DNA from: Octopus vulgaris
Lineage: Eukaryota
DNA length: 64,000 nt
Assembly (NCBI GenBank): GCA_951406725.2
Contig: OX597818.1
Span: forward strand, 90,458,001 to 90,522,000
Direction: 5' to 3'
Positions 6,307 to 63,419 of this stretch are shown in pieces. The notes beneath the pieces are model-generated. The model was not told the origin of the DNA. It saw only the letters and a list, made by a program, of their open reading frames with translations, and did not search any database. Both the position numbers and the translations under genes were made by a program. Positions within the stretch are counted from its first letter, which is position 1. Each line of letters opens with the position of its first letter.

Positions 6307-6369
6307 TCAGTCTTCAGTCAAGAACCGGATCATCGTAGTAATTTCGGCTGATTAATCTTGAGATTACTA
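6307..6369 (-). ncRNA. Hammerhead-like motif with non-nested strand order (family A, copy 1)
   Basis: Minus strand: UAGUAA-UC-UCAAGA uuaa UCAGcc-GAAA-UUACUA cgaugauccggu UCUUGA-CUGAAGA-CUGA. Stem III 7 bp, stem I 6 bp, stem II 4 bp with a CC bulge. Confidence 0.7.
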
Positions 6370-7163
6370 GATCACGGCCAGCCCTCCAAGAAAAACCAAG
6401 CAACAAGCATTAGAAAAACTAAGCTGGAAGCGTAGATTTCCTGGAAGAAGGATCGAATGCATACGAACACCAGGACAGCAAAAGGGACAGATATAAAAAA
6501 ACAAAAAACAATAATGGAATACAGAAACATGAAATACAGAAGCATTAACGGTGAAAACAACAGTGTCTTACGACTGATAACAAGCAAACAAATTTTTTCT
6601 CTGGCGCAATGGAAAAAGCCTTTATAGTGGCGGACGAAAACAGCGATGTTAACAAGACAAGGGTCAGAAGCTGAAAGGCAGATTTCGGCCAACAGTCACG
6701 TGACAGAGAAGAGGGAAAAGAAAAGAAAGAGAAGCAAAGGAAGAGAGAGAGAGAGGAGAGAGAGAGAGGAGGGACAAACGCAACAAAGAGAGAGAAGAGA
6801 GAGAAAGAAGGAATCAGAGAGGAGAAGGGATGGGTGTCGAAGAATGACCTGTGAGTGCAGAGCGAGACAAAGAAATAGGAGGGTAGTGGAAGACTAGACC
6901 AAAGAATCAGAGGAAAGAGAAGAGAAAAAGAGGATGAGTAGAGAGAAAAGAGAGAGAGGGGGACAGATCAAGTAAAAATGAGAGAGAGAGAGAGACAAAC
7001 AGAGAGTCGTACCAATTATTAAGAATATGTGCTCACATAAATGTTAAGGGGGGTACGGGGCGCCTGGAATATATGTTAAGGTATGTAGAAAAATACAACA
7101 TGGACAAGAACGTATAACTCTTAGAAGACGACACAATAAACACGGACAGGACATTCGAAACCC

Positions 7164-7226
7164 TCAGTCTTCAGTCAAGAACCGGATCATCGTAGTAATT
7201 TCGGCTGATTAATCTTGAGATTACTA
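7164..7226 (-). ncRNA. Non-nested hammerhead-like motif (family A, copy 2)
   Basis: Same sequence as 6307-6369. Confidence 0.7.
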
Positions 7227-8022
7227 GATCACGGCCAGCCCTCCAAGAAAAACCAAGCAACAAGCATTAGAAAAACTAAGCTGGAAGCGTAGATTTCCTG
7301 GAAGAAGGATCGAATGCATACGAACACCAGGACAGCAAAAGGGACAGATATAAAAAAACAAAAAACAATAATGGAATACAGAAACATGAAATACAGAAGC
7401 ATTAACGGTGAAAACAACAGTGTCTTACGACTGATAACAAGCAAACAAATTTTTTCTCTGGCGCAATGGAAAAAGCCTTTATAGTGGCGGACGAAAACAG
7501 CGATGTTAACAAGACGAGGGTCAGAAGCTGAAAGGCAGATTTCGGCCAACAGTCACGTGACAGAGAAGAGGGAAAAGAAAAGAAAGGGAAGCAAAGGGAA
7601 GAGAGAGAGAGAGGAGAGAGAGAGAGGAGGGACAAACGCAACAAAGAGAGAGAAGAGAGAGAAAGAAGGAATCAGAGAGGAGAAGGGATGGGTGTCGAAG
7701 AATGACCTGTGAGTGCAGAGCGAGACAAAGAAATAGGAGGGTAGTGGAAGACTAGACCAAAGAATCAGAGGAAAGAGAAGAGAAAAAGAGGATGAGTAGA
7801 GAGAAAAGAGAGAGAGAGGGGGACAGATCAAGTAAAAATGAGAGAGAGAGAGAGACAAACAGAGAGTCGTACCAATTATTAAGAATATGTGCTCACATAA
7901 ATGTTAAGGGGGTACGGGGCGCCTGGAATATATGTTAAGGTATGTAGAAAAATACAACATGGACAAGAACGTATAACTCTTAGAAGACGACACAATAAAC
8001 ACGGACAGGACATTCGAAACCC

Positions 8023-8085
8023 TCAGTCTTCAGTCAAGAACCGGATCATCGTAGTAATTTCGGCTGATTAATCTTGAGATTACTA
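8023..8085 (-). ncRNA. Non-nested hammerhead-like motif (family A, copy 3)
   Basis: Same sequence as 6307-6369. Confidence 0.7.
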
Positions 8086-8197
8086 GATCACGGCCAGCCC
8101 TCCAAGAAAAACCAAGCAACAAGCATTAGAAAAACTAAGCTGGAAGCGTAGATTTCCTGGAAGAAGGATCGAATGCATACGAACACCATACACCAAA

Positions 8198-8241: not shown

Positions 8242-9716
8242 TAAATTAGAGATAAAACCACTATTAGGCAAATCAAACAATGAAAAACATAAAATACATA
8301 AAATTAATTTACAATTTGAAGATCTTAAATATAAATAAATACATAAACAACGATATTTACATAAGGAAAATATTATTACACCAAAGACTTATACAATATT
8401 AAAATTTACAATTTGAATTTCTTAAATATAAATAAATACTTATCTTAGCGAGGTTTAGTAAACCTCGCTAAGATAAGTATTTATTTATATTTAAGAAATT
8501 CAAATTGTAAATTTTAATATTGTATAAGTCTTTGGTGTAATAATATTTTCCTTATGTAAATATCGTTGTTTATGTAATGATCTAATTATCGTAATTTTCT
8601 ATATTATTAGATATTAAATTTAAGATTATTCGTAAGATACTACTTAGCGATAGATTTGTTGTTTGATAGCAAGTATACGAGGTGTATAAAGCTAGGCTTT
8701 TGTATATACATGTTTTAATAGTATTAATTGTAGTTTTAAATTTCTTATAATTAAATTAGATAAACTTTGATAAACTTAGATATGTTTCGACTAAAGATTG
8801 GTCCAGGCCATGTCTAATTTAATAGCATAACTTAGTTATTGTTTTTTTAAATTGATATTCGCTAGTTATTCCCATTGATAATTATATTTATAGTATTTAT
8901 AGTATTTATTCGATACTATATTACTACGAATTGATTATTTCTAAAAGTATTTTACATAAGATTTCCGAAAGTTCGTTTAAGTTTGTTTACTTGTATTTTG
9001 AAATTAGCTATTTCATCTTTAAATATGAAAAATTAATTTATTAGGTTTTTATTATATGTGCATATATATTTATTTATAGAGATTATTTTAGATCTTAATT
9101 ATAATATTTATATACATTTATATATTTTCATTGATAATTTATATATAATAGTCATTTTTAAATATTTATGTAATTAGATATAGATTAATACCGATATTAG
9201 ATTATTGGTGGGTTTCCTACCTTATAAATTACAATTAATATTTAACATTATAGTCGATTTTGATATAATCATAATTGTTAAGTTTTATGTTTCTAGTTTG
9301 ATAATAGAGTTTATTATAAGTAAAATTATTATATTATTTATATTTTTAAAATATTGTTTAAATATTTCTGATTATTTTTTAGCTATTTCAATTAACCTGA
9401 AGATTGACTGTAACCATAACTCGAATTATTAATTCAATTTAAATTATTGTTATTCGAATTGTACAGCCATGAAACGATCGTAGTGTTTTACTCTTTATCT
9501 TTTATTAAACTTTTAATACTTTTGATATATATTTAAAATAATTTAAATTAAATTAATTTTATGTATTGGCTTATGTTTTTCATTGTTTGATTTGCCTAAT
9601 AGTGGTTTTTATCTCTAATTTAATATAATATATAATATATTTATACTATAAAATTGGATTTAATCCTAAATCTGATTTTTCCCTGTAAGTTTGGATTTAT
9701 TCCCTAATATTTTATT

Positions 9717-28479: not shown

Positions 28480-30690
28480 CAGCAAATGGTTTTTAGGTCA
28501 TTTATATGTAGTTATGGACAGACTACACCTCCTCAAGGTCTTGTGTAAGATGTTCTCGGGTCCATCAAAGAAGATGCACTTGGAAAATCTGGGGTCAGAC
28601 ATGCACGCTACATGTTCACTCCAACGCAACTGGAATTTGCTCAGGAAAGCATACACGCTTTGTACGTTAGTCCTCTCTCGAGCACGACTATATGGGGAAT
28701 CATCTTGCTATCTGATGTTAAAACGACTACCGTCATAACCATATATGGTGTCTCATAGGTGAATGTATCATGAAACATTGCGCAAAGCATCAAACTGAAA
28801 AGTGTGAGTACTAGAACAAAACCATGTCTCACCCCGTTAGGAACAACGGAAGGCGCGGAGAATTCTCGATCATTTATGACACGAGCTTGCATGCCATCCT
28901 AAAATTTATGCATCATGTTAATGAATTTGCCTGGGCAACCAAATTTCTTCATTAATTCTCCTAAAGGCCGATTCTGCTTAAAAAGCCCTGATCAGGTCGA
29001 TGAATAAGGTGTAGAGGTCTCGTTTTTGATCCTGACGTTTTTCATGAGGCTGCCTTGTAGCAAAGATGATGTCCGTGGCTCCCACAGGTTTTTCTAAAAC
29101 CACACTGACCTTCATGAAGAAGCCCAGACTTAAGACGTTGTTTGAGCCGATTGAGCATGATCCCTGCCAGGATTTTGCTGTGATGGTCAGCAGTGATATG
29201 TTCCCATGGTTCTTTCACTCTACAATGATTCCTTTTATTTTATAAAGGTGTACAATTCTGGTAGAATTAGACCCTGTTCCCACATTTCCGTTCGCCATGT
29301 CTATAGACCTAAGTAGGAATTTCCTCAGAGGCAGGGTTGAGCATTTCATTGCCAATTGAATTTCACCAAGTGTAATGAAACACTCAATCAATAGTTAGTG
29401 GGCAGCTGATGTAGACGATTTATTGCCTCTGCGTTTATATGAGCGGGACAGTTTAAGAGAGAATCAGTGTTCTGCTCATCACTTTCGTATCAACGATTTC
29501 TTTATCAATAAAATAAGGCCATTCGCGCTGAGCAAGGGGGCTGTTCTTGCTTTTTGAGGTCTATATATAGAATGAATTGTTGTATAAATGCCTTTAATGT
29601 ATTTTATCTCAGCTTCATGATATATTTCCCTAGCTCGTTGCTGAAATCGCTCATTTTCCAAACTGAGAAGTTTTTCTGTAGTAGGTGACAACTCCTTTAT
29701 GCTGATTCATTTCCTTGTGTATTGTTTTCAAGAAACTTTTGCTGTAATTGCTCCTTCCTGCTTAACAATTCTGATATTTCATCGTCATTCTCATCAAACT
29801 ATTCTTTGTGTTTGTGTTCTATTTTCCTTTAGACTTCGAGGGATGATGCATAAACAGTAGTGTGGAATTTCATCCATTTTCCCTCAATGTTATTCACTGT
29901 CTCTAATGAGTGTGTCTATTTATAATCCAGCATAGCACACGTATTCTTGGATCTGAGTTTGTTGAGGTTCAGAGAAGTTTCTATTACTTTTTCATGAGGT
30001 CGTCTTCTCATCTTCAATTTGAGTTTACACTAAGCTTTCATTAGCCGTTGGTCAGTCTATTAATCAGCGCCATATATACACTTGGCAAACACATGGTGTA
30101 CCGACCTTTCTGACAACTAATGATGAAGTCAGTCAAGTGTCAGTGTTTAGACCGGAGGTGCATCCAAGATGTGTGGTTCCCAAGAAGCAGTTTAAGCGTG
30201 GCGTTTTTCAGGAGCAACGGATTCACAGTGCAGAACTGGAGCAAAAATCCATTACTGGAATTGCGAGGGCCAAATTTATTTGTTCTAATTCTGGCATTGA
30301 TGCCTTCCAGTAATATGAGGTTTTCTTTTTGTGGAATGAGAGAAATTAGAGATGAAAACTTTTTGCAGAGTTTCATTTTCAATGCTTGGTCATTAGACGT
30401 CGTCGGGGAAAAGCAGCTCACAAGATTGAGAAAATTATTTCCTTTCGTTGCCAGTCTCAGGATCATACGCCGATAATTTATGGCTTTTGGAAGGACGGTG
30501 ACATTTTGCTAGGCTGTTTTTCACTGAAAAAGCTACACCAGCTTCGTGCTCCTTCTCCTTCTCCTTCTTTGACTGGAGTTTTCCGGACTCTGGAAGTCTT
30601 GTTTCGGTGAGAGTAGCTATGTTAATGTTGTCCCTCGATAATTCTTTACCAACAAGGACTGAGTTTCTTGCAAGCCTTCCTAGTTCGTTG
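28480..30690 (-). mobile_element. RTE/BovB-like LINE, decayed APE and RT
   Basis: ORF fragments LVGKELSR.NI.IA.L.ETRL, SWMHLRSKH (TWMHPRSKH-like), and NGVR.G.VL..TLFS. Confidence 0.88.
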
Positions 30691-30699
30691 TTATATATA

Positions 30700-30870
30700 G
30701 GTGCAGGCGTGGCTGTGTGGCTATGTGGTAAGAAGCTTGCTTCCCGACCACATGGTTCCGTGTTCAGTCCCACTGCCTGGCACCTTGGGCAGGTTTCTTC
30801 TACTATAGCCTCGGGCCAACCAAAACCTTGTAAGTGAATTTAGTTGACGGAAACTGAAAGAAACCCGCAT
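30700..30870 (+). mobile_element. SINE S1, 5' part
   Basis: GGTGCAGGCGTGGCTGTGTG...CACCTTGGGCAGG. Confidence 0.85.
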
Positions 30871-33548: not shown

Positions 33549-33609
33549 TTCAGCTGATGAGCTTAAAGTCTGATTTTTCATACAGAAAGCGAAATCAATT
33601 GATCCTGAA
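33549..33609 (+). ncRNA. Canonical type I hammerhead ribozyme
   Basis: UUCAG CUGAUGA GCUU..UCUG..CAGA AAGC GAAA UCAAUUGA UC CUGAA. Perfect core, 5-bp stem I, palindromic stem III, AUC site (cut after 33604), followed by AATAAA. Confidence 0.85.
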
Positions 33610-35506: not shown

Positions 35507-35787
35507 CCCATCTTTCTGTAGTTGCTCATACGTAACTATTGTCCATCTTTCTTTTCCTGCACAGACGTTCAAAGGACTGGACGTGTTTTTTTCTATCTTT
35601 TCTCTTTCCAAAGAAAGTATTTCTCCCAGCGTTCTCAATTTTCCTCTCGTTCTGGTCTAATGACCCTCCATGTTTGTTTTCGTTCTGTTTCCTTTTATGC
35701 GTCCACTGTCCTGTTTTTGTTCCCAACTTTGACCCTCCATAAATCCTAAATTTTATTTTAGAATCTATGGGAGCAGCTGTGTTTGAA

Positions 35788-35850
35788 GACATATTGTCTT
35801 TGAATGCTCGAAATACGGAGTAGATGCACAGCCGACAACTGATGAAAGAT
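35788..35850 (+). ncRNA. Non-nested hammerhead-like motif (family B), decayed
   Basis: A-UA-UUGUC ... GAAA U.. GAGUAGAUG.. GACAA-CUGAUGA. Stem I perfect, stems II and III eroded. Confidence 0.5.
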
Positions 35851-35952
35851 CCTCTCTCTTTATTTACTTGTCCTATTTTCCATTTTTTTCTCTCGTTGTT
35901 TACGTATTTCATGTTGCTTCAACCGTTGGTAACGTCCTGTACCCATATATGC

Positions 35953-36351: not shown

Positions 36352-36455
36352 ATTCAGGGTGAATACTTGATAATTGTAAGCACCTGTATATGCCATTTAG
36401 TGGTGTAGGTGATAGAGTATATTTATCAAAATAAAAACATGATGCAAAGGATTTA

Positions 36456-36543
36456 GCGGTACATATGTTTCTGGCTTTTATTAGACGGTTTATATCAATA
36501 CATAATTGATGTAATTTGTATGTCAATAGCCTTCTTCAGCCGC
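36456..36543 (-). ncRNA. Type I hammerhead (left arm of palindrome)
   Basis: Mirror copy of 36829-36916. Confidence 0.75.
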
Positions 36544-36828
36544 GTACAATTACTACTCCAAGGACATGTATTACATTAGTTTGGGAAAAAGACGAATTAT
36601 GTTGGGGATGCAAATCCTCATAGTCGTGTACAACAGAGCGAAGCACCAAAACAAAATCGAAGCGTCCATCCCGTTTTTCACTCATGTAGAGTGAAAAACG
36701 GGATGGACGCTTCGATTTTGTTTTGGTGCTTCGCTCTGTTGTACACGACTATGAGGATTTGCATCCCCAACATAATTCGTCTTTTTCCCAAACTAATGTA
36801 ATACATGTCCTTGGAGTAGTAATTGTAC

Positions 36829-36916
36829 GCGGCTGAAGAAGGCTATTGACATACAAATTACATCAATTATACATTGATATAAACCGCCTAATAAAAGCCA
36901 GAAACATATGTACCGC
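36829..36916 (+). ncRNA. Type I hammerhead with long stem II
   Basis: GCGG CUGAAGA a GGCU...AGCC a GAAA CAUAUG UA CCGC. Confidence 0.78.
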
Positions 36917-36945
36917 TAAATCCTTTGCAACATGTTTTTATTTTG

Positions 36946-37032
<87 letters not shown>

Positions 37033-40802: not shown

Positions 40803-40965
40803 AATATTTTTTGATAAACGGTCTCCAGAGCCGCATCAAACGATGGGAGAAATGCGTAACTCTGGGTGGTTCCTATGTAGAAAAAGACTAATAACTGTGC
40901 CAAGTTTCGTTGCTCTACTGCTATGGGAAGTGGGTCAGGGGCATTACTTATTGAACGCCCCTCGT
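40803..40965 (+). mobile_element. 3' terminal fragment of the same mariner family as 44018-45307
   Basis: Reverse complement of about 44018-44175, including the TIR ...TTATTGAACGCCCCTCG|TA. Confidence 0.9.
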
Positions 40966-41336
40966 ATATGCTAAACTGCTTATGGGTATGAAATATTTGA
41001 TCATATTTCACTGTAGAATCCTCGTTTAAAACATCTGACGGGTAAAAATAGCAAAATCATTGATTTCCAACACGAATTAGGGATACATATATGAACTATA
41101 TAATTCATAGAAAACAAAATTTGAGTCAATAAACTATTGAACTAGTTAAAAGCAACAATACCGAATCCATATGTGCACACTTACATGTAACACATGTTTG
41201 TGCCCTATTATACGGTGTGTGTGTGTATGATAGAGTATGTGCATTCTGTATATTGTTTAATGTATTGTTAATTCATATTCTCTCGGATGGATTTTTCCGC
41301 TTCAAATTTTTAATACACACACACACACACACACAT

Positions 41337-41421
<85 letters not shown>

Positions 41422-41484
41422 TCACACACGAATCTTTCTCCCCTCTCTCTATGTATACCTATATCTACGTCTATCTATCTCTCT

Positions 41485-41555
<71 letters not shown>

Positions 41556-41559
<4 letters not shown>

Positions 41560-41925
41560 AATAAAATAGAACATATGCATATATATAAACATATATGTAC
41601 GTACCTACCTCTACATGTACATATACACGCATATATGTGTACAGGACACCAAAAAGACGTCGAACACATAGAGAGACGAAAAACATAGACACAAACCAAG
41701 GAACAGGACAAGCAAAAAAGAAAAAAGAGATACAGGACAATAAGCACAACGAAAAATCCCCTTCTTCAGTCGCTAAGGTTTCATCTACTCTACGTTTCGA
41801 AGGATAAAAGCGAGACGTATACTTCGAAGAAACTTCCTTCCTGCGAAAAGCAAATCAATTAAAATTCTGAGATCTTTTCGCAGAGGGGTAAAAAATGGTA
41901 AAAAAAGCAAGACGGTAACGACAAT
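41556..41925 (-). mobile_element. HHR family B element
   Basis: Similar to 10280-10600, embedded in (TA)n, and flanked by a direct repeat of about 90 bp. Confidence 0.75.
41756..41819 (-). ncRNA. Non-nested hammerhead-like motif (family B), best preserved
   Basis: Minus strand: UACG-UC-UCGCU uuu AUCCUUC-GAAA-CGUA gaguagaugaaaccuu AGCGA-CUGAAGA-AGGGGAU. GUC site, stems I and III perfect, stem II 6 bp. Confidence 0.78.
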
Positions 41926-42007
41926 ATATATATACACACACACGTCACACACGAATCTTTCTCCCCTCTCTCTATGTATACCTATATCTACGTCTATCTC
42001 TCTCTCT

Positions 42008-42078
<71 letters not shown>

Positions 42079-43295
42079 TCCATTTCATGCCCTTAATCAG
42101 GTCTGTAATTTTCTCCAAAAACTTCTTAGAGCATAGTTCCCTTCAATGTATAGGTATGTTTTTCTTAGAATAATCGATGTAATAGGCGTCCATATTGGAT
42201 TCTTCCGAGGGGTAGAGTCCGGCGATTTTCCAAAATAAGCTGTATTAGCCCTTAGGGAAGAATAGCGGTGTACGGGAGGTAACTTATTGATAAAAATGGT
42301 AAGACAACAAAAGAAAGATATAGTATTTTTCCGATGGCCGGATAACTGAAGAGATGGCGGCGTGGATTTCCACCTCGGCATCCGAAACTCGGAGTTTTAT
42401 CATGGCTACCGAATAATTGTCACATATTACATTTACAGATATATATATATTATATGTATGTATATGAATTAGAAATGGAAACCAAAACAATACATAATTA
42501 AATAATTTAATCATTAAAAGATAACTTCAATTCAATTTTATTACTTTATATAAACAAATGATACATGTCATAAATTACAGTTGTTTCGACTCCATTAATA
42601 TAAACAAATTTTTCAAGAATAATAAAATATCGTTTAAATATAATGAGATTTCATCAGAGCGAGGGACCAACAAAACTCCTTGTAGCACTAAAGATGACTG
42701 ACGGCAAGGATTATGGCAGCATTCACCAACTTAAATAAGGAGACCGTCCAGAAGAATTGCAGCAGATTCCGAAATCGTCTGAAGGCCGTGGTTGAAGCCA
42801 ATGTCGATTTTATTGAATAAATTTATTCTTTAATATTTCAAGATATTTTCATGTAATTTTGGTAAATATATATGTTAAAATGAGATGCGCAACGTAAACT
42901 ACACACTAGGTGGGGATCGAAACACAACTATTTTGAAGGAACCTTAATTCCACGCTATGCGCAGATTTTCAAATAGTATTTCAGATAAAATATATGAAAA
43001 TTAGGGTTATGTGACAGCCCCGTGCCCCTCGCATACACTTCCACAATTAAATACCCTAATTTTCTATATTAGTCATATCTCTAACACATATATACTAAAT
43101 TGCTTATGGATATGATGCATTTAATCATATTTCACTGTAGAAACCATGTTTAAAACATCTGATGAGTAAAGATAGCAAAAACATTGAGATATAAGACAAT
43201 TGGTAGGTAGGTACCTCTCCAACATGGCAAAATTACAACTTTTCAGTGTCTGTTAAATGATTTTCTTTTTAGAAAATGTATACATTTGTTGAATG

Positions 43296-43530: not shown

Positions 43531-44017
43531 AAAAAAACATTTGTTGAATATCACAAAAATATCTACATAAATTTAAACAGTAATAATTTAAGTATATAAA
43601 ATCATGTAATGGCAACTAGAAGTAAAAACTGTAATTCAGCATTTAGGTTCCCTATAGAATTTCCTACAGCAATGACCCCATCAACGTCTGTTGTATTCCG
43701 ATACTATTTATACATAAGAAAACGTGAAGAGCAGATATCAAAAACTTCACCTACAGTGAAAGAATGCAACCGGATTGTTGCTGCAGAATTGCAAACAATA
43801 TGGGACAAATTTTCCTTTCTTTATATTGGGTTCGAAGGAATAGATCTAAAAATTGAGTGGTTGAATTAATCTACTTAAAAATTAAGCGAAATACCTATCA
43901 AGCAAAGAGGAGATAGTATTGATAAAAACTTTAGATGAGTTCAATGAAATGTTTGATATATGAACCTGTACATGTTATGAAAAACAAATAAAAAGATCTG
44001 ATTCTAGGTGTGACATA

Positions 44018-45307
44018 CGAGGGGTGTTCAATAAGTAATGCCCCTGACCCACTTCCCATAGCAGTAGAACAACGAAACTTGGCACAGTTATTAGTCTTTT
44101 TCTACATAGGAACCACCCAGAGTTACGCATTTCTCCCATTGTTTGATGCAGCTCTGGAGACCGTTTTTGTAGAAGACCTTAGCTTGGTCCTCCAACCTGA
44201 ACGTGACTTCAGAAATAAAGGCTGCATCATCTGGGAAACGCTTTCCTTTCAAAAACAACTTCCTGACTGGGAAGAGGTGAAAATCAGAGGGTGCAAGGTC
44301 AGGAAAGTAGGGGGATGGGGCACGAGTTCATAGCCATACGCCTGTGCTTCTGATCTGGCGACAAGCGAGTTGTGGACCGGGGCGTTGTCCTGCAGGAGGA
44401 GGATGCCTTTGCTGATCTTGCCCCGCCTCTTGATTTTGATAACTTCTCTTAATTTCCTCAAAAGTGAAGCATAATAAGCTCCTGTAATTGTGGTACCCTT
44501 TGCCAGGAAATCTGTCATCACTACTCCGTCCTGGTCCCAGAAGACTGTGAGCATGACCTTGCCAGCGGAGGGCTGCACCCTTGCCTTCTTTGGAGGGGGT
44601 GAGTCACGGTGCTTCCACTGCATTGACTGGGCTTTGGTCTCTGGATCATCGTGATGGACCCAGGTTTCATACTGTGTAATCAGTCTTTTGAAAAAGTTTG
44701 ACTCATCTTCTTGGCACATCTCCAAATTCACCTTCGAGCACTCGACGCGTTCTTGCTTCTGGAAAGGTGTGAGCAACCTGGGAATCCATCTGGCAGACAC
44801 CTTTTGCATATGCAAATGGTCATGAATGATAGTTTCCACAGACCCGGTACTAATCTTGACCTCATGGGCTATTTGGCGAATAATTATGCGTCGATCCTCC
44901 AAAATGGCAGCCTCAACTTGACGGACAGATGCCTCATCAATGGCAGAAGAGGCGACCAGATCTGGGAGCTGTTTCCACAGAGTTCCGACCATGTTTGAAT
45001 TCACGATGCCAGCGTTTTACAAGGTCATATGATGGGGCATCATCACCATAAGTTACTTTCATTTCATCAAAAGTCTCCCGTGGTGTGCGTCCTTTCAAAT
45101 ACAAAAACTGGATCACTGCTCGACACTCAACAGGCTCCATTTCACACTTGACTCGGTTCAAACACCTGTAAATCAGAAGCCACAATTAATTCAGAGCTGT
45201 AATTTGCCACTTACTCTATAGAGATATAAATGATTGCACATGCAAAATTTCAGCTAGATCAAACAACTGCAAGTGGGTCAGAGGCATTACTTATTGAACG
45301 TCCCTCG
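44018..45307 (-). mobile_element. Full-length mariner element (about 1290 bp)
   Basis: TIR CGAGGG..GTTCAATAAGTAATGCC.CTGACCCACTT at both ends, with a TA target duplication. Confidence 0.95.
44091..45140 (-). pseudogene. Mariner transposase pseudogene
   Basis: MEPVECRAVIQFL HTH, WIPRLL (WVPHEL-like), (D>Y)ETWVHH, QDNAPVH, frameshifted PPYSPDL-like motif. Frameshifts near 44950 and 44315; first catalytic Asp lost. Confidence 0.93.
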
Positions 45308-52989: not shown

Positions 52990-53445
52990 GAAAAAGGACA
53001 GCAAAAATCAAGGTGGAACGAGTATCTTAGGCCATTTACAGTATTCAATTAGAGTAAGGTAATTTAGAAGTAATTAAAGTCTTATAACAGTATCTGGGAT
53101 ATCCTAAGTGATGGGTCCACATCTCCATATATTGCGTATTCCGTCATCAGAGACAAGGTGCCTATGTAGGCAAATTCCAGACAGAGAATTCACAGTGTAT
53201 AAAAGAATAAGATAATATCTACTGTTTTATTCTTTTATACATTGTGAATTCTATCGGGAACTTGCTCTACATACGCACCTTGTCTCTGATGACGGAATAC
53301 CCAGTGTATGGAGGTGCGGACCCATCACCTAGAATATACCAGAAACAACTGCAAGACATTAATTACTTCTCATTCACCTTACTCTAATTAAATACTCCAA
53401 ATGACCTGAAATACTCGTTCTACCGTGGTTTTGTTGTCCATTTAA
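52990..53445. repeat. Diverged inverted repeat (arms about 220 bp), each arm with a decayed type I HHR
   Basis: Centre near 53218. Right arm GUCU CUGAUGA..GAAA CAACUG CA AGAC (53282-53357); left arm mirror at 53079-53154 has GAUA instead of GAAA. Confidence 0.8.
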
Positions 53446-54404: not shown

Positions 54405-54467
54405 TCAGTCTTCAGTCAAGAACCGGATCATCGTAGTAATTTCGGCTGATTAATCTTGAGATTACTA
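54405..54467 (-). ncRNA. Non-nested hammerhead-like motif (family A, copy 4)
   Basis: Same sequence as 6307-6369. Confidence 0.7.
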
Positions 54468-55269
54468 GATCACGGCCAGCCCTCCAAGAAAAACTAAGCA
54501 ACGAGCATTAGAAAAACTAAGCTGGAAGCGTAGATTTCCTGGAAGAAGGATCGAATGCATACGAACACCAGGACAGCAAAAGGGACAGATATAAAAAAAA
54601 AAAAAAAACAATAATGGAATACAGAAACATGAAATACAGAAGCATTAACGGTGAAAACAACAAGTGTCTTACGACTGATAACAAGCAAACAAATTTTTTC
54701 TCTGGCGCATTGGAAGGAGCCTTTATAGCTGCGGACGAAAAACAACGATGTTAACGTGACGATGGTCAGAAGCTGAAAGGCAGATTTCAGCCAGCAGTCA
54801 CGTGACAGAGAAGAGAGAAAAGAAAAGAAAGAGAAGCAAAGGAAGAGAGAGAGAGAGAGGAGGGACAAACGCAACAAAGAGAGAGAAGAGAGAGAAAGAA
54901 GGAATCAGAGAGGAGAAGGGATGGGTGTCGAAGATTGACCTGTGAGTGCAGAGCGAGACAAAGAAATAGGAGGGTAGTGGAAGATTAGACCAAAGAATCA
55001 GAGGAAAGAGAAGAGAAAAAGAGGATGAGTAGAGAGAAAAGAGAGGAGAGAGAAGAGAGAGAGAAGGGGACAGATCAAGTAAAAATGAGAGAGAGAGAGA
55101 GACAAACAGAGAGTCGTACCAATTATTAAGAATATGTGCTCACATTAATGTTAAGAGGGTACGGGGCGCCTGGAATATATGTTAAGGTATGTAGAAAAAT
55201 ACAACATGGACAAGAACGTATAACTCTTAGAAGACGATACAATAAACACGGACAGGACATTCGAAACCC

Positions 55270-55332
55270 TCAGTCTTCAGTCAAGAACCGGATCATCGTA
55301 GTAATTTCGGCTGATTAATCTTGAGATTACTA
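55270..55332 (-). ncRNA. Non-nested hammerhead-like motif (family A, copy 5)
   Basis: Same sequence as 6307-6369. Confidence 0.7.
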
Positions 55333-55656
55333 GATCACGGCCAGCCCTCCAAGAAAAACTAAGCAACGAGCATTAGAAAAACTAAGCTGGAAGCGTAGAT
55401 TTCCTGGAAGAAGGATCGAATGCATACGAACACCAGGATAGCAAAAGGGACAGATATAAAAAAAAAAAAAAAACAATAATGGAATACAGAAACATAAACT
55501 TGTTAACAGATGAGATCCAGAGATTCTCAGTATAGAAAGCAGTTAGTGGCACTCAAATGATTCAAACAAGAGAAAGCAAATATATATTTCTTTCACTATC
55601 CAACCCCAGTGATCATCAATATATGTATATGAGTATATAATAATAATAATAATAAC

Positions 55657-55779: not shown

Positions 55780-57690
55780 TGTATTGTTCAACCTAAGGAT
55801 AACAAACGGAAACTACGTAATTTAAACTTGATACACAAGATGTAGGAAAAACAACACGGACTATTTAACATCAGAAATGAACGGACCAGTACCCTACGAA
55901 AATGATGACCATGAAAATTAAGGGCCGGACGTTATTCCTCATGTCCCGCAAATAAAATCAAAACAGTATATAAATGGACACGTGAGGAATATATTTCAAA
56001 TCTACACGCTCATTTTACAGCAGTGCTCTACCCAAAGAACAAAAATTCAACAACAGCAAAAAGAAGAAGGGTTTAAGTATGGCCTGGATCGATTACCGAA
56101 AGGCTTTTGATAGTATTCCCCAAACATGGATCCTAGAAAAACTAGCCATGAAGAAACAAGGTGGCATCAATAATCATAAAATATATAAAACATTTCATGA
56201 ATAAATGGCAGACAGTGCTACAGCTCCAGACAAAAGAGGGATTCATAAAAGCCAAAGCCATCCCCATTAAAAGAGGTATATTCCAGGGAGACACGCGCTC
56301 TCTCCTCCTTTTCTGCTTGGCACTGACATCTTTATCTGACATGCTAAACAGAACTGGATGTGGATACAACTGTTACGGCAAAACAATCAGCCATCTCTTG
56401 CATGTGGATGATATAAAACTGTACGCTACAAATGATAAACAGCTGAAAACATTATTACAGACAGTACATAGATTTATCAGAGAAATATACATGAAATTTG
56501 GCTTATTGGCTTAGAAAAATGTGCCAAAGCAATCTTGAAAAACGGAAACTAGATAAAGCATATAAAATAAGAGAATTAGACCAAAGCTAGACATACAAAT
56601 ACTTAGGAGCACAAGATCAAACCTTCCCGCCAGAAATCAACAGATCACGTAATAAAAAGAAATGCAAGTAACTAGATACGATACAACACACACAAATGAA
56701 ACAGGTTAAAAAAGGAATGCTAACGACGAGTCAGATTAATATTGAAAATAGAGTTCAATATGGAAAACAAGATAATAAGTATCAAAACTCTAGCCGTCCC
56801 AGTTACAAGTTGCAGCTACTATATTCTTAACTGGACTCTAAATGAGGTAATCAAAATAGACAGGAAAACAAGAAAAATAATGACATGATTTAGAATGCAC
56901 CACTCAAAATCTGACATAGAACAGTTATATATACAATGTATCGAAGGTGGCAGAAGCCTTATACAGCTAGAAAACTATTACAAAATAACCACCATAGGAC
57001 TACAGAAATCCTACTTCAGAAGTAAGGAAAACTGATACAAATAAGATGAAAAAAACACAAAACAAACACACTGTTTTCAGTCTTTAAGGAAGCTGACAAA
57101 TACAAAAAAGAAATCATAGTACCTAACAACTAGGGAAAAAAAAGAAACAAAATATGATGTAAAACAATTAAAATTAAAATTAAAACTGGAACAGCAACAG
57201 ATCATGACAAAACGATGGTAAGAAAAGCCCCTACATGGCAAATATTCGGTTAAGTTAAACAGAAATGAAATAGACAAGGCAAAATCCCAACAATGGCTGG
57301 GAAGCTCAGGACTCAAAGCAGAGACTAAAGGTTTTTGAAATGCAGCACAAGATCAAGTCTTTAGGCTTTGTGCCTTCAGTAGAAAGGATTCTACCTGAAA
57401 TCACCAAATCACGTAATGAAAAGAAATACAAGTAACTCCAGTATATGTGGTGATTGAGAAGAAACAATAAATCACATTGTCTCTGACTGCCCAGTCCTGC
57501 TAAAAAGGAATATATTCACAGGCACGGCAGAGTTGGGACCTATATACACTGGAAATTATGCCAAACACAAGTGAATAACAACAGAGAAAAGATGGTTTAG
57601 GCACTCGACAGCAAAGGTCAAAGAACATGAAAAACCAACCATACTCTGGGATATGCCAGTACACACAGATAGAGAAACATAAACAATCTT
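55780..57690 (+). mobile_element. R4/Dong-clade LINE, decayed RT, CCHC region and RLE start
   Basis: MAWIDYRKAFDSIP, IKRGIFQGD.., ISHLL.VDDIKLYA, S..WL.S.GL..ET.G, AAQDQ, ETINHIVS.CPVLA, ILWDMP. Confidence 0.88.
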
Positions 57691-61910: not shown

Positions 61911-62023
61911 TATATATGAATATATAGTCATCAAACAAGAAGCAAGGAAAAAAAAACAACGCAAGGACGTGGACAAGTACTGTGTTATTGCACGCTCAGA
62001 AAAGGAAAATAAAATAAAGAGGA

Positions 62024-62056
62024 TTTCACGTTTCGAGCGGAGCTCTTCATCAGAAA
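62024..62056 (-). ncRNA. Minimal type I hammerhead, probably inactive (G17)
   Basis: Minus strand: UUU CUGAUGA A GAGC ucc GCUC GAAA CG UG AAA. Confidence 0.55.
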
Positions 62057-63419
62057 AAGTCCAAAGAAGGGAAGACGGAGGAAGAAAATCGCCAACAATA
62101 CACACGAGGTCATGAGTGTATGTGTATATCTGTTTGTATGCATGTATGTACACAGGATAATAGAATAAGGAGAGAAAGAAAAGGGGAGAGAACGTCTTTA
62201 TTATCACCTACATTTCTTCCTTCTTTGATGGGTGGAAAAACAAATACCAGTAATACAAGGTAATATATTTATTTGATTAAATGTTTTACCATGAGAAAAA
62301 AAGGGTATCTGTTATAGAGTCGCCCGCGTGGTTATACAAAAAGAGAAGACAGGATCAGCATCCACATCCAGCAAATAAAGAACATGCAGTTATCATAAAT
62401 CAGTATATGTATACCCGTATACATGTGCGTTTGAGTCTGTGTCTGTATGTGTATGCGTTTGTGTGTGACACTTTCCCAGTCGTCATACTTGAGGAATGTT
62501 GTTTTCCACTTTACTGTTACATGTTGAAAGATCACATTCCGCTTACTATTTATTCATAACTCTAACTTCAAAACACGCATGAATAAATGCATTTAATATT
62601 CCCACTCATAGCAAACAAATATCTCTTTTAATTTGAACAATTAAGAAACACTGTGATATAAACTCAGCATTTTAGAATAACCTATTTCAAGAAAGCTATT
62701 AATTACCTTCTTATCGTAAATCTTGACAGATTTACATCAGAGTATCATGTATTATATCTTTAAAAATAATTCGGGACAATAATGCTAAACACATAATACA
62801 GGTTTCTATCAAATACCAAACAAAAGAGCTGTCTTTATCGCCTGTATTTTATGGATTTGACTTTCTGTTAACTTTAATGCGGAGGAGGGTATAAAAGCAT
62901 GTGTAAGAGTTTGAAGAGATCGTTCTGGTCTTCTAACTTTATACCTGTCTGTCCTTCAGTTTCTCTGTCTCTCTGTCTGTTTTTCTCTCTGTCTGTCTGT
63001 CAGTCTCTCTCTCTTTCTCTCTTTCACACAAATATACACACACACACACACGCACGCGCGCGCGCACACACACACACACATTCTCTGTCATTCAGTCAGT
63101 CTCTTAATTAGTCAGTCAGTCTGTCTGTCTGTCACCCAGCCCCACTGTTTTTGTCTTATTCCTTTCTCTGAATACTTCTATATTATTTTGTTGAAATTTA
63201 TTCACCATTGTCTCTATGGTCGCATTTATCTCCTTTTATCTCTGGAACACATTACTGCCACTCCATCACCGCCTTGGTATCAACCCTACAAAGCTACCAC
63301 AACAGGGAGAACCACAATAAAGTTACTCTGTTATCACCACGCTGCCACCACCACTATACTGTTATTACAACGTTTATCAACCAGGAGCCCCCTCCCCCTG
63401 TGCCCAAGGATCGACTTAC

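Follow-up and report, generated by a model that had tools for sequence, protein, structure and literature searches.

A putative hammerhead-type self-cleaving RNA with a split core in high-copy repeats of Octopus vulgaris

The motif and its host repeat in the window

The window is a 64,000-nt stretch of the Octopus vulgaris genome (contig OX597818.1, positions 90,458,001 to 90,522,000 of the forward strand), and positions below count from its first letter. On its minus strand lies a 5'-truncated, 367-nt copy (41557..41923) of a non-coding Penelope-like/retrozyme unit of about 880 nt, with a fixed 3' end running into (TA)n. The flanking segments 41401..41521 and 41924..42044 match each other across the insertion at 98% over 121 nt, microsatellite included, and may represent a long target-site duplication. 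At 30 loci of this unit, we find no convincing ORF, and the extent of 5' truncation differs between copies; 22 of them stop at one site, running into (TA)n, 8 continue through the unit end, and 15 loci contain more than one core, overlapping loci being counted twice. Because the unit is non-coding, variably truncated at its 5' end, fixed at its 3' end, partly in tandem and provided with one putative ribozyme per unit, we assign the host to a young, (TA)n-inserting, partly tandem, non-autonomous Penelope-like element or non-LTR retrozyme, an assignment for which the type I hammerhead, a retrozyme criterion, is missing from the focal element.

The motif in this copy consists of eight strands, all on the minus strand. 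Strand a (GAAGGA, 41835..41840) starts with G10.1 and provides the 5' strand of stem II. Within a few bases it is followed by strand b (41829..41833), the co-varying 5' side of an extra helix, P0, which takes the place that the stem I-II interaction helix has in type SGC hammerheads. Strand c (41816..41819) forms the 5' side of stem III, the GUC triplet occupies 41814..41816 with a predicted cut between 41814 and 41813, and strand d (41809..41813) is the side of stem I located 3' of that cut. Strand e (41799..41804) is the 3' side of stem II, ends in C11.1 and co-varies with strand a. It is followed by the GAAA core (G12-A15.1) and strand f, the 3' side of stem III (together 41791..41798). Strand g (41778..41782), the co-varying 3' side of P0, sits just before strand h, the stem I partner, which leads into the CUGAAGA core (C3-A9; together 41763..41774) and an unpaired tail after A9. 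Strands c, d, f and h are all evidenced by both pairing and co-variation.

The first-pass annotation of this site covered only 41756..41819, leaving strand a 21 nt outside. Its letters agree with the minus strand as we read it directly: UACG (41819-41816), UC (41815-41814), UCGCU (41813-41809), AUCCUUC-GAAA-CGUA (41805-41791), a 16-nt linker and AGCGA-CUGAAGA-AGGGGAU (41774-41756). The core words and GUC site that it pointed out are real, with CUGANGA, GAAA and an NUH next to A15.1-U16.1 all in place. Its further claim, that all three stems are in register, holds for stem I (5 bp) and stem III (4 bp plus A15.1-U16.1), both of which are perfect and co-vary across subfamilies. It fails for stem II, which was built with 41756..41762; that strand can pair in this copy and shows no co-variation, and the resulting stem begins with an A10.1.C11.1 mismatch and two G.U pairs. 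Owing to this start, a strict three-stem descriptor misses the locus. A relaxed descriptor for the same strand order (site, GAAA, CUGANGA) finds 6 matches in the window, namely this site and five copies of a second family, against 0 in 10 shuffles of 264 kb, so that the annotation's shuffled-sequence check came out in its favor; 200 kb of random genome also give 0 matches. An Rfam search returns no hammerhead at the locus, whose strand order is not a circular permutation of the types I-III in clan CL00010, as anticipated by the proposal that type I-III searches would overlook a non-nested hammerhead.

The window holds further copies of the motif. Tandem units of about 860 nt belonging to a second clade carry three full motifs on the minus strand of 6311..8099 (6383-6311, 7240-7168 and 8099-8027), and the same clade has two at 54409..55346 on the same strand (54481-54409 and 55346-55274). 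An older relative of the focal clade, on the plus strand at 35757..35862, displays a stem II with compensatory changes, GAGCA/UGCUC. At 543, 10479 and 11465 on the plus strand lie copies of clades 1 and 2 that are truncated or decayed; they keep GAAA and CUGANGA, and their upstream strands are lost or mutated.

The strand that pairs to form stem II

To determine which strand forms stem II, we aligned 24 genomic loci and 2 window copies (A3, 26 rows) collected with a pattern that fixes neither candidate strand, since an earlier pattern had fixed the columns of the downstream stem II. The rows come from 40 loci, of which 16 were left out as 5'-truncated by a test blind to both stem II strands. 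In A3, strands a and e are paired in 93.1% of cells, with 30 cells changed on both sides, a level reached in 0 of 500 shuffles; such double changes amount to a few subfamily splits, and the shuffle counts ignore relatedness and are not probabilities. The stem II types seen are GAAGG/CCUUC, GAACG/CGUUC and GAGCA/UGCUC. In contrast, the register of the first-pass annotation pairs in 56.7% of cells (equalled in 498 of 500 shuffles) and a register with an extra A in 60.0% (482 of 500), counts that are lowered slightly by one row (L223) shifted by one column in its CUGANGA block. The co-variation that the annotation had asked for across genomic copies is thus found in stems I and III, while its stem II pairs no better than shuffled sequence.

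In 59 distinct copies chosen solely for their stems I and III, strand e finds its best partner mostly 20-28 nt upstream of the site, and the upstream partner beats the downstream one in 50 when equal windows of 30 nt are compared. Four ways of pairing stem II downstream were considered (A.C, extra A, +2 and a 5-nt insert); none co-varies, the +2 register being judged by eye, and the A.C and extra-A tests outside A3 are weak because the selecting pattern itself fixed those columns. In clades 2-4, no partner stands directly after A9. In hammerheads as described by Eckert et al. (2023; PMC10085705), A9 continues into position 10.1 along the same strand, with 1-2 extra bases in between at the most; the motif departs from this arrangement. 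As strands a and e co-vary and the downstream registers do not, A9 and G10.1 are placed on different strands.

The four helices together are paired in 93.4% of cells in A3, 97.2% in alignment A1 and 92.4% in the alignment of the second clade (A2), with double changes in 12 of 21, 10 of 19 and 12 of 23 pairs, respectively. For P0 alone, the corresponding values are 96.8%, 96.1% and 88.6%. Meanwhile, U16.1 is kept in 26/26 rows of A3, position 17 is never G (26/26), and G10.1-C11.1 is present in 23/26, none of which was imposed by the selecting pattern. N7 takes all four bases, and the base after A9 varies. The site block co-varies with stems I and III although no search pattern included it. The sequence tests all fit a hammerhead, for which catalysis itself is a prediction.

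The two versions of stem II also differ in the focal copy, where pairing is worth -8.4 kcal/mol with the downstream strand and -10.6 kcal/mol with strand a. Nested minimum-energy folds of this copy depart from the hammerhead, and one of them buries GAAA under an upstream strand. In addition, G8-A9 can pair with strand e at -9.7 kcal/mol; the competing pairings are close in energy.

Copies in the genome and in other carriers

Two mutually exclusive patterns, both with GAAA before CUGANGA, match the 2.8-Gb genome 5,370 times (0 in controls) and 11,539 times (17 in controls), giving 16,909 matches against 17. Two further patterns, partly overlapping the first two, give 1,787 matches against 22 in controls and 787 against 0. 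With a 111-nt focal query, 40 identical matches are found among the 40 scored of 1,238 candidates. The copies fall into four clades, the third obtained from a DNA search (40 scored of 1,000 candidates). The full eight-strand descriptor matches the window 6 times and 30 shuffles of 264 kb 0 times. In six sets of genomic loci it fits 30/30, 16/30, 15/30, 6/30, 2/30 and 9/40; the copies failing it are explained by truncation or decay. It fits 0 of 20 random 10-kb genomic loci, in line with the expected density, and 0 of 80 viral-contig loci drawn from at least 124 pattern matches. The structure is real, high-copy and conserved. One GC-rich locus (L281) passes a looser descriptor and fails the full one, which we read as a chance match.

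The motif also occurs in Naiad elements, in which Craig et al. (2021; PMC8557442) report no canonical hammerhead and some of which are marked ‘HHR_core’ or ‘HHR_half_core’ there. In their File S5 (54 consensi), we inspected by eye 43 of 43 CUGAAGA, 44 of 62 CUGAUGA, 14 of 23 CUGACGA and 14 of 25 CUGAGGA places, and the split fold fits 11 of the 54 consensi. Three near-identical Acropora and two near-identical Octopus consensi are named by adjacent headers. The other six are placed only by file order, among ctenophore, cnidarian/rotifer, crustacean and cephalopod/hemichordate records. Among the eleven, stem II is imperfect in one and stem I very short in one; beyond A9, only the two Octopus consensi can pair at all, by weak wobble pairs. 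By eye, records in the nematode part follow the ordinary type I order, and several others have no visible motif. Several Naiad 3' regions in this supplement show a C-rich run before CUGACGA or CUGAAGA and its partner after, an arrangement that fits neither fold.

The 3' end of Naiad_Obim, like that of Naiad_Ovul, matches the clade-3 motif of the O. vulgaris genome. In 7 of 12 loci with a Naiad-like RT match (6/6 strong and 1/6 weak matches), words of clade 3 follow 0.6-1.5 kb downstream, a link to a Naiad RT that is seen for clade 3 only, the focal unit having no ORF. Clade 4 is found about 340-420 nt past an ORF end in 2 of 30 loci.

Outside this genome, 9 of 47 metagenome loci contain the full fold, and 4 of these have a related ORF whose end lies 90-182 nt upstream of the site. 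Two such ORFs (L199 and L275) are 51% identical. The ORF has a weak zf-RVT match below the cut-off, its Atlas neighbors are eukaryotic zf-RVT/RT proteins, and a PDB sequence search returned no match; it may be the restriction-like endonuclease of a HERO-type non-LTR element. At two loci, L275 and L298, a G-rich strand just 5' of strand a can pair with strand h and extend the hairpin, possibly as an off-state that sequesters strand h.

We found no autonomous partner of the focal family in a 781-aa Penelope-like family or at 20 further GIY-YIG loci, the latter containing only apparently unlinked copies. The former, seen at loci L071-L075, L057 and L062, is young, with intact 781-aa RT + GIY-YIG frames; by eye, it carries its own minimal type I motif and no split motif, and was rejected as the partner. 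That type I motif has a U3-A8 swap, and promoter-like boxes are repeated in the 3' UTR of this family.

Proposed fold, alternatives and relation to known hammerheads

In the hammerhead fold, stem II stacks on stem III, and stem I lies beside stem II. On the basis of the sequence comparisons, we consider it likely that the motif is a hammerhead-type self-cleaving RNA with a split core, in which the four-strand core is broken between A9 and G10.1. From 5' to 3', its elements would be strand a (stem II), strand b (P0), c-NUH-d, a short linker, e-GAAA-f, strand g (the other side of P0) and h-CUGANGA, a topology obtained from type SGC by joining its ends and opening the resulting circle between A9 and G10.1. 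P0 and stem III would nest as one hairpin, whose loop, holding the cut site and GAAA, pairs with two strands hanging from the hairpin base. Cleavage would follow C17 by ordinary hammerhead chemistry. Tandem transcripts would be cut once per unit, yielding unit-length RNAs that could then undergo circularisation and reverse transcription, a route already suggested for Penelope-like elements and non-LTR retrozymes.

Given the hammerhead fold, the only place for P0 to begin is at the tops of stems I and II, a long way from the foot of stem III. In the focal copy, linkers of 9 and 8 nt could allow a U-turn, so that one molecule may fold by itself. P0 and stem III form almost one helix at locus L298 (3-base bulge) and in one Naiad consensus (1-base bulge). 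Our geometric estimate from such near-continuous helices is that the base of one copy docks on the loop of another, either a tandem neighbor or a second molecule. By the same estimate, the monomer looks geometrically impossible for some Naiad versions, and a second molecule or a tandem arrangement is probably required in some cases. Such docking would resemble the dimeric minimal hammerheads of Penelope elements.

The most serious alternative, which we regard as unlikely, is a conserved 3'-UTR structure that is non-catalytic or protein-dependent, for instance a hammerhead-derived platform for RT binding or priming. It would agree with the competing folds, with the near-continuous P0 and stem III helices that speak against a simple monomer, with Naiads that lack the motif or follow the ordinary type I order, and with the poor in vitro cleavage of minimal Penelope hammerheads (Cervera and de la Pena, 2014; PMC4209133). 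Yet in four clades, and in two retroelement classes that are unrelated to each other, CUGANGA, GAAA, U16.1, a non-G at position 17 and G10.1-C11.1 stay fixed although the sequence of every helix has changed, and these fixed positions are the constraints of hammerhead catalysis.

A second alternative, which we find improbable, is an ordinary type SGC hammerhead, whose stem II uses the bases right after CUGANGA, with the upstream strand acting as an inhibitor or switch and keeping strand e bound until displaced. The cleavage of type SGC is known (PMC10085705), the downstream strand of the focal copy can form 6 pairs after the A.C mismatch, the AGGG found downstream varies little across the focal clade, and the second clade has a 4-bp partner 5 nt after A9 that is 84.2% paired. 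Nevertheless, the downstream registers of A3 do not track strand e, and three further downstream alignments, including that of the 4-bp partner, contain no double change. Moreover, the whole core is kept with no downstream partner in clade 4, in the 9 metagenome copies and in most of the Naiad consensi that fit the fold.

Still less probable is RNA processing, in which splicing or strand exchange would join strand a of the next copy to A9 of the previous one, so that a standard SGC arises only in processed RNA. An acceptor-like word, UUUUCGCAG (41849-41841, minus strand), stands directly before G10.1 in the focal copy, half of the 30 loci hold more than one core (again with overlapping loci counted twice), and the Penelope intron of D. 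virilis ends at the 5' edge of its hammerhead (PMC4209133). However, AG before G10.1 is missing in many subfamilies, no donor adjoins A9 in the focal clade, and clade 4 and the metagenome copies have no acceptor at strand a. The sequencing runs listed include none recorded as RNA; contigs from 4 runs cover the unit and contain no joint at the predicted intron and no trace bearing on cleavage, an observation from contigs only that does not weigh either way. A donor-like word is seen at the unit junction of one locus (L003). A chance match in a repeat-rich genome, where the window has 42 CUGANGA words for an expected 27, can practically be set aside in view of the co-variation of four helices, the absence of full-descriptor matches in shuffles and the excess of pattern matches over controls.

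The first-pass annotation had presented its strand order as a candidate new topology. This order is already published as type SGC, with cleavage demonstrated (Eckert et al., 2023; PMC10085705), and the topology supported here is stranger than the one it proposed. That study assumes that the blocks S, G and C are uninterruptible, leading to six orders; type SGC, typically with a three-base linker, was validated by cleavage and compensatory mutants, and was found there only in metatranscriptomes. Our motif shares with type SGC (HRIMA-1 and a variant) the order of site, GAAA and CUGANGA, a short stem I-II linker of about 3 nt, an extra helix between the distal ends of stems I and II (here P0), and an f-to-g linker that may be 0 nt. 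It differs in that the SGC descriptor needs stem II directly after CUGAUGA, whereas here the 5' strand of stem II and a strand of the extra helix stand at the 5' end. The split core lies outside the six block orders. A literature search, with most subscription papers and bioRxiv supplements outside its reach, found no description of a hammerhead broken at 9/10.1; since no printed example was found, activity of the split core is extrapolated.

Minimal Penelope hammerheads tolerate an extra base at 9/10.1, are marked by G10.1-C11.1, depend on dimers and have low activity in vitro (Cervera and de la Pena, 2014; PMC4209133). Like these type I motifs, the split core lies near the 3' end of Penelope-type repeats, has G10.1-C11.1, compensated subfamilies and flexibility at 9/10.1, and likely acts as a dimer. 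The minimal type I form is nested, its stem III is weak and a single extra base sits at 9/10.1, whereas the split core has a non-nested order, a stable stem III and a strand break at 9/10.1. With non-LTR retrozymes, the host has in common tandem non-coding units that each bear a single ribozyme, here a putative one, long duplications of the target and an origin from Penelope-like elements (PMC7229834; bioRxiv 10.64898/2026.07.22.740005). In contrast, those retrozymes are defined by type I hammerheads and are mostly 150-450 nt long, with up to 972 nt in the preprint, compared with the unit of about 880 nt here. Naiads are similar in their (TA)n targets, partial tandems and a short tail at one end (PMC8557442), and differ in that the focal family has no ORF.

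We consider it an even call whether the broadest version of this reading holds, namely a seventh topology that serves as the usual 3'-UTR ribozyme of many Naiads in several phyla and of a restriction-endonuclease non-LTR clade, with more than 16,000 copies here, in which the base cuts the loop and only tandem or paired transcripts are processed. The split core would break the premise of uninterruptible blocks and six exhaustive orders (PMC10085705), and may answer why Naiads ‘lack’ hammerheads in the account given by PMC8557442. Non-circular hammerheads, so far known almost only from metatranscriptomes, would enter animal genomes at high copy number, and one ribozyme fold would link two unrelated retroelement classes. 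Because current descriptors and Rfam miss the split core, ribozymes in genomes would be undercounted. A core assembled from a hairpin base and a hairpin loop would also be a natural trans-acting design.

Other hammerhead-like motifs and repeats occur in the window. A motif of ordinary type I order lies on the plus strand at 33549-33609, where Rfam HH9 scores 32.5 bits (E 2.8e-4, gathering score 52). Minimal type I motifs of the Penelope type, with an extra base after A9, lie at 42341-42401 (plus) and about 62020-62060 (minus). We also notice long near-perfect inverted repeats at 36418-36954, 8332-8584 and 53004-53432, two of which have CUGANGA in each arm, like inverted Penelope-type insertions. 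On the minus strand, 44249-45016 encodes a 255-aa frame whose motifs resemble those of a mariner transposase; an inverted pair of 152 nt (40816-40967 with 44015-44166) is located nearby. By eye, fragments at 30140-30839 and 56152-56514 resemble LINE endonuclease and reverse transcriptase frames.
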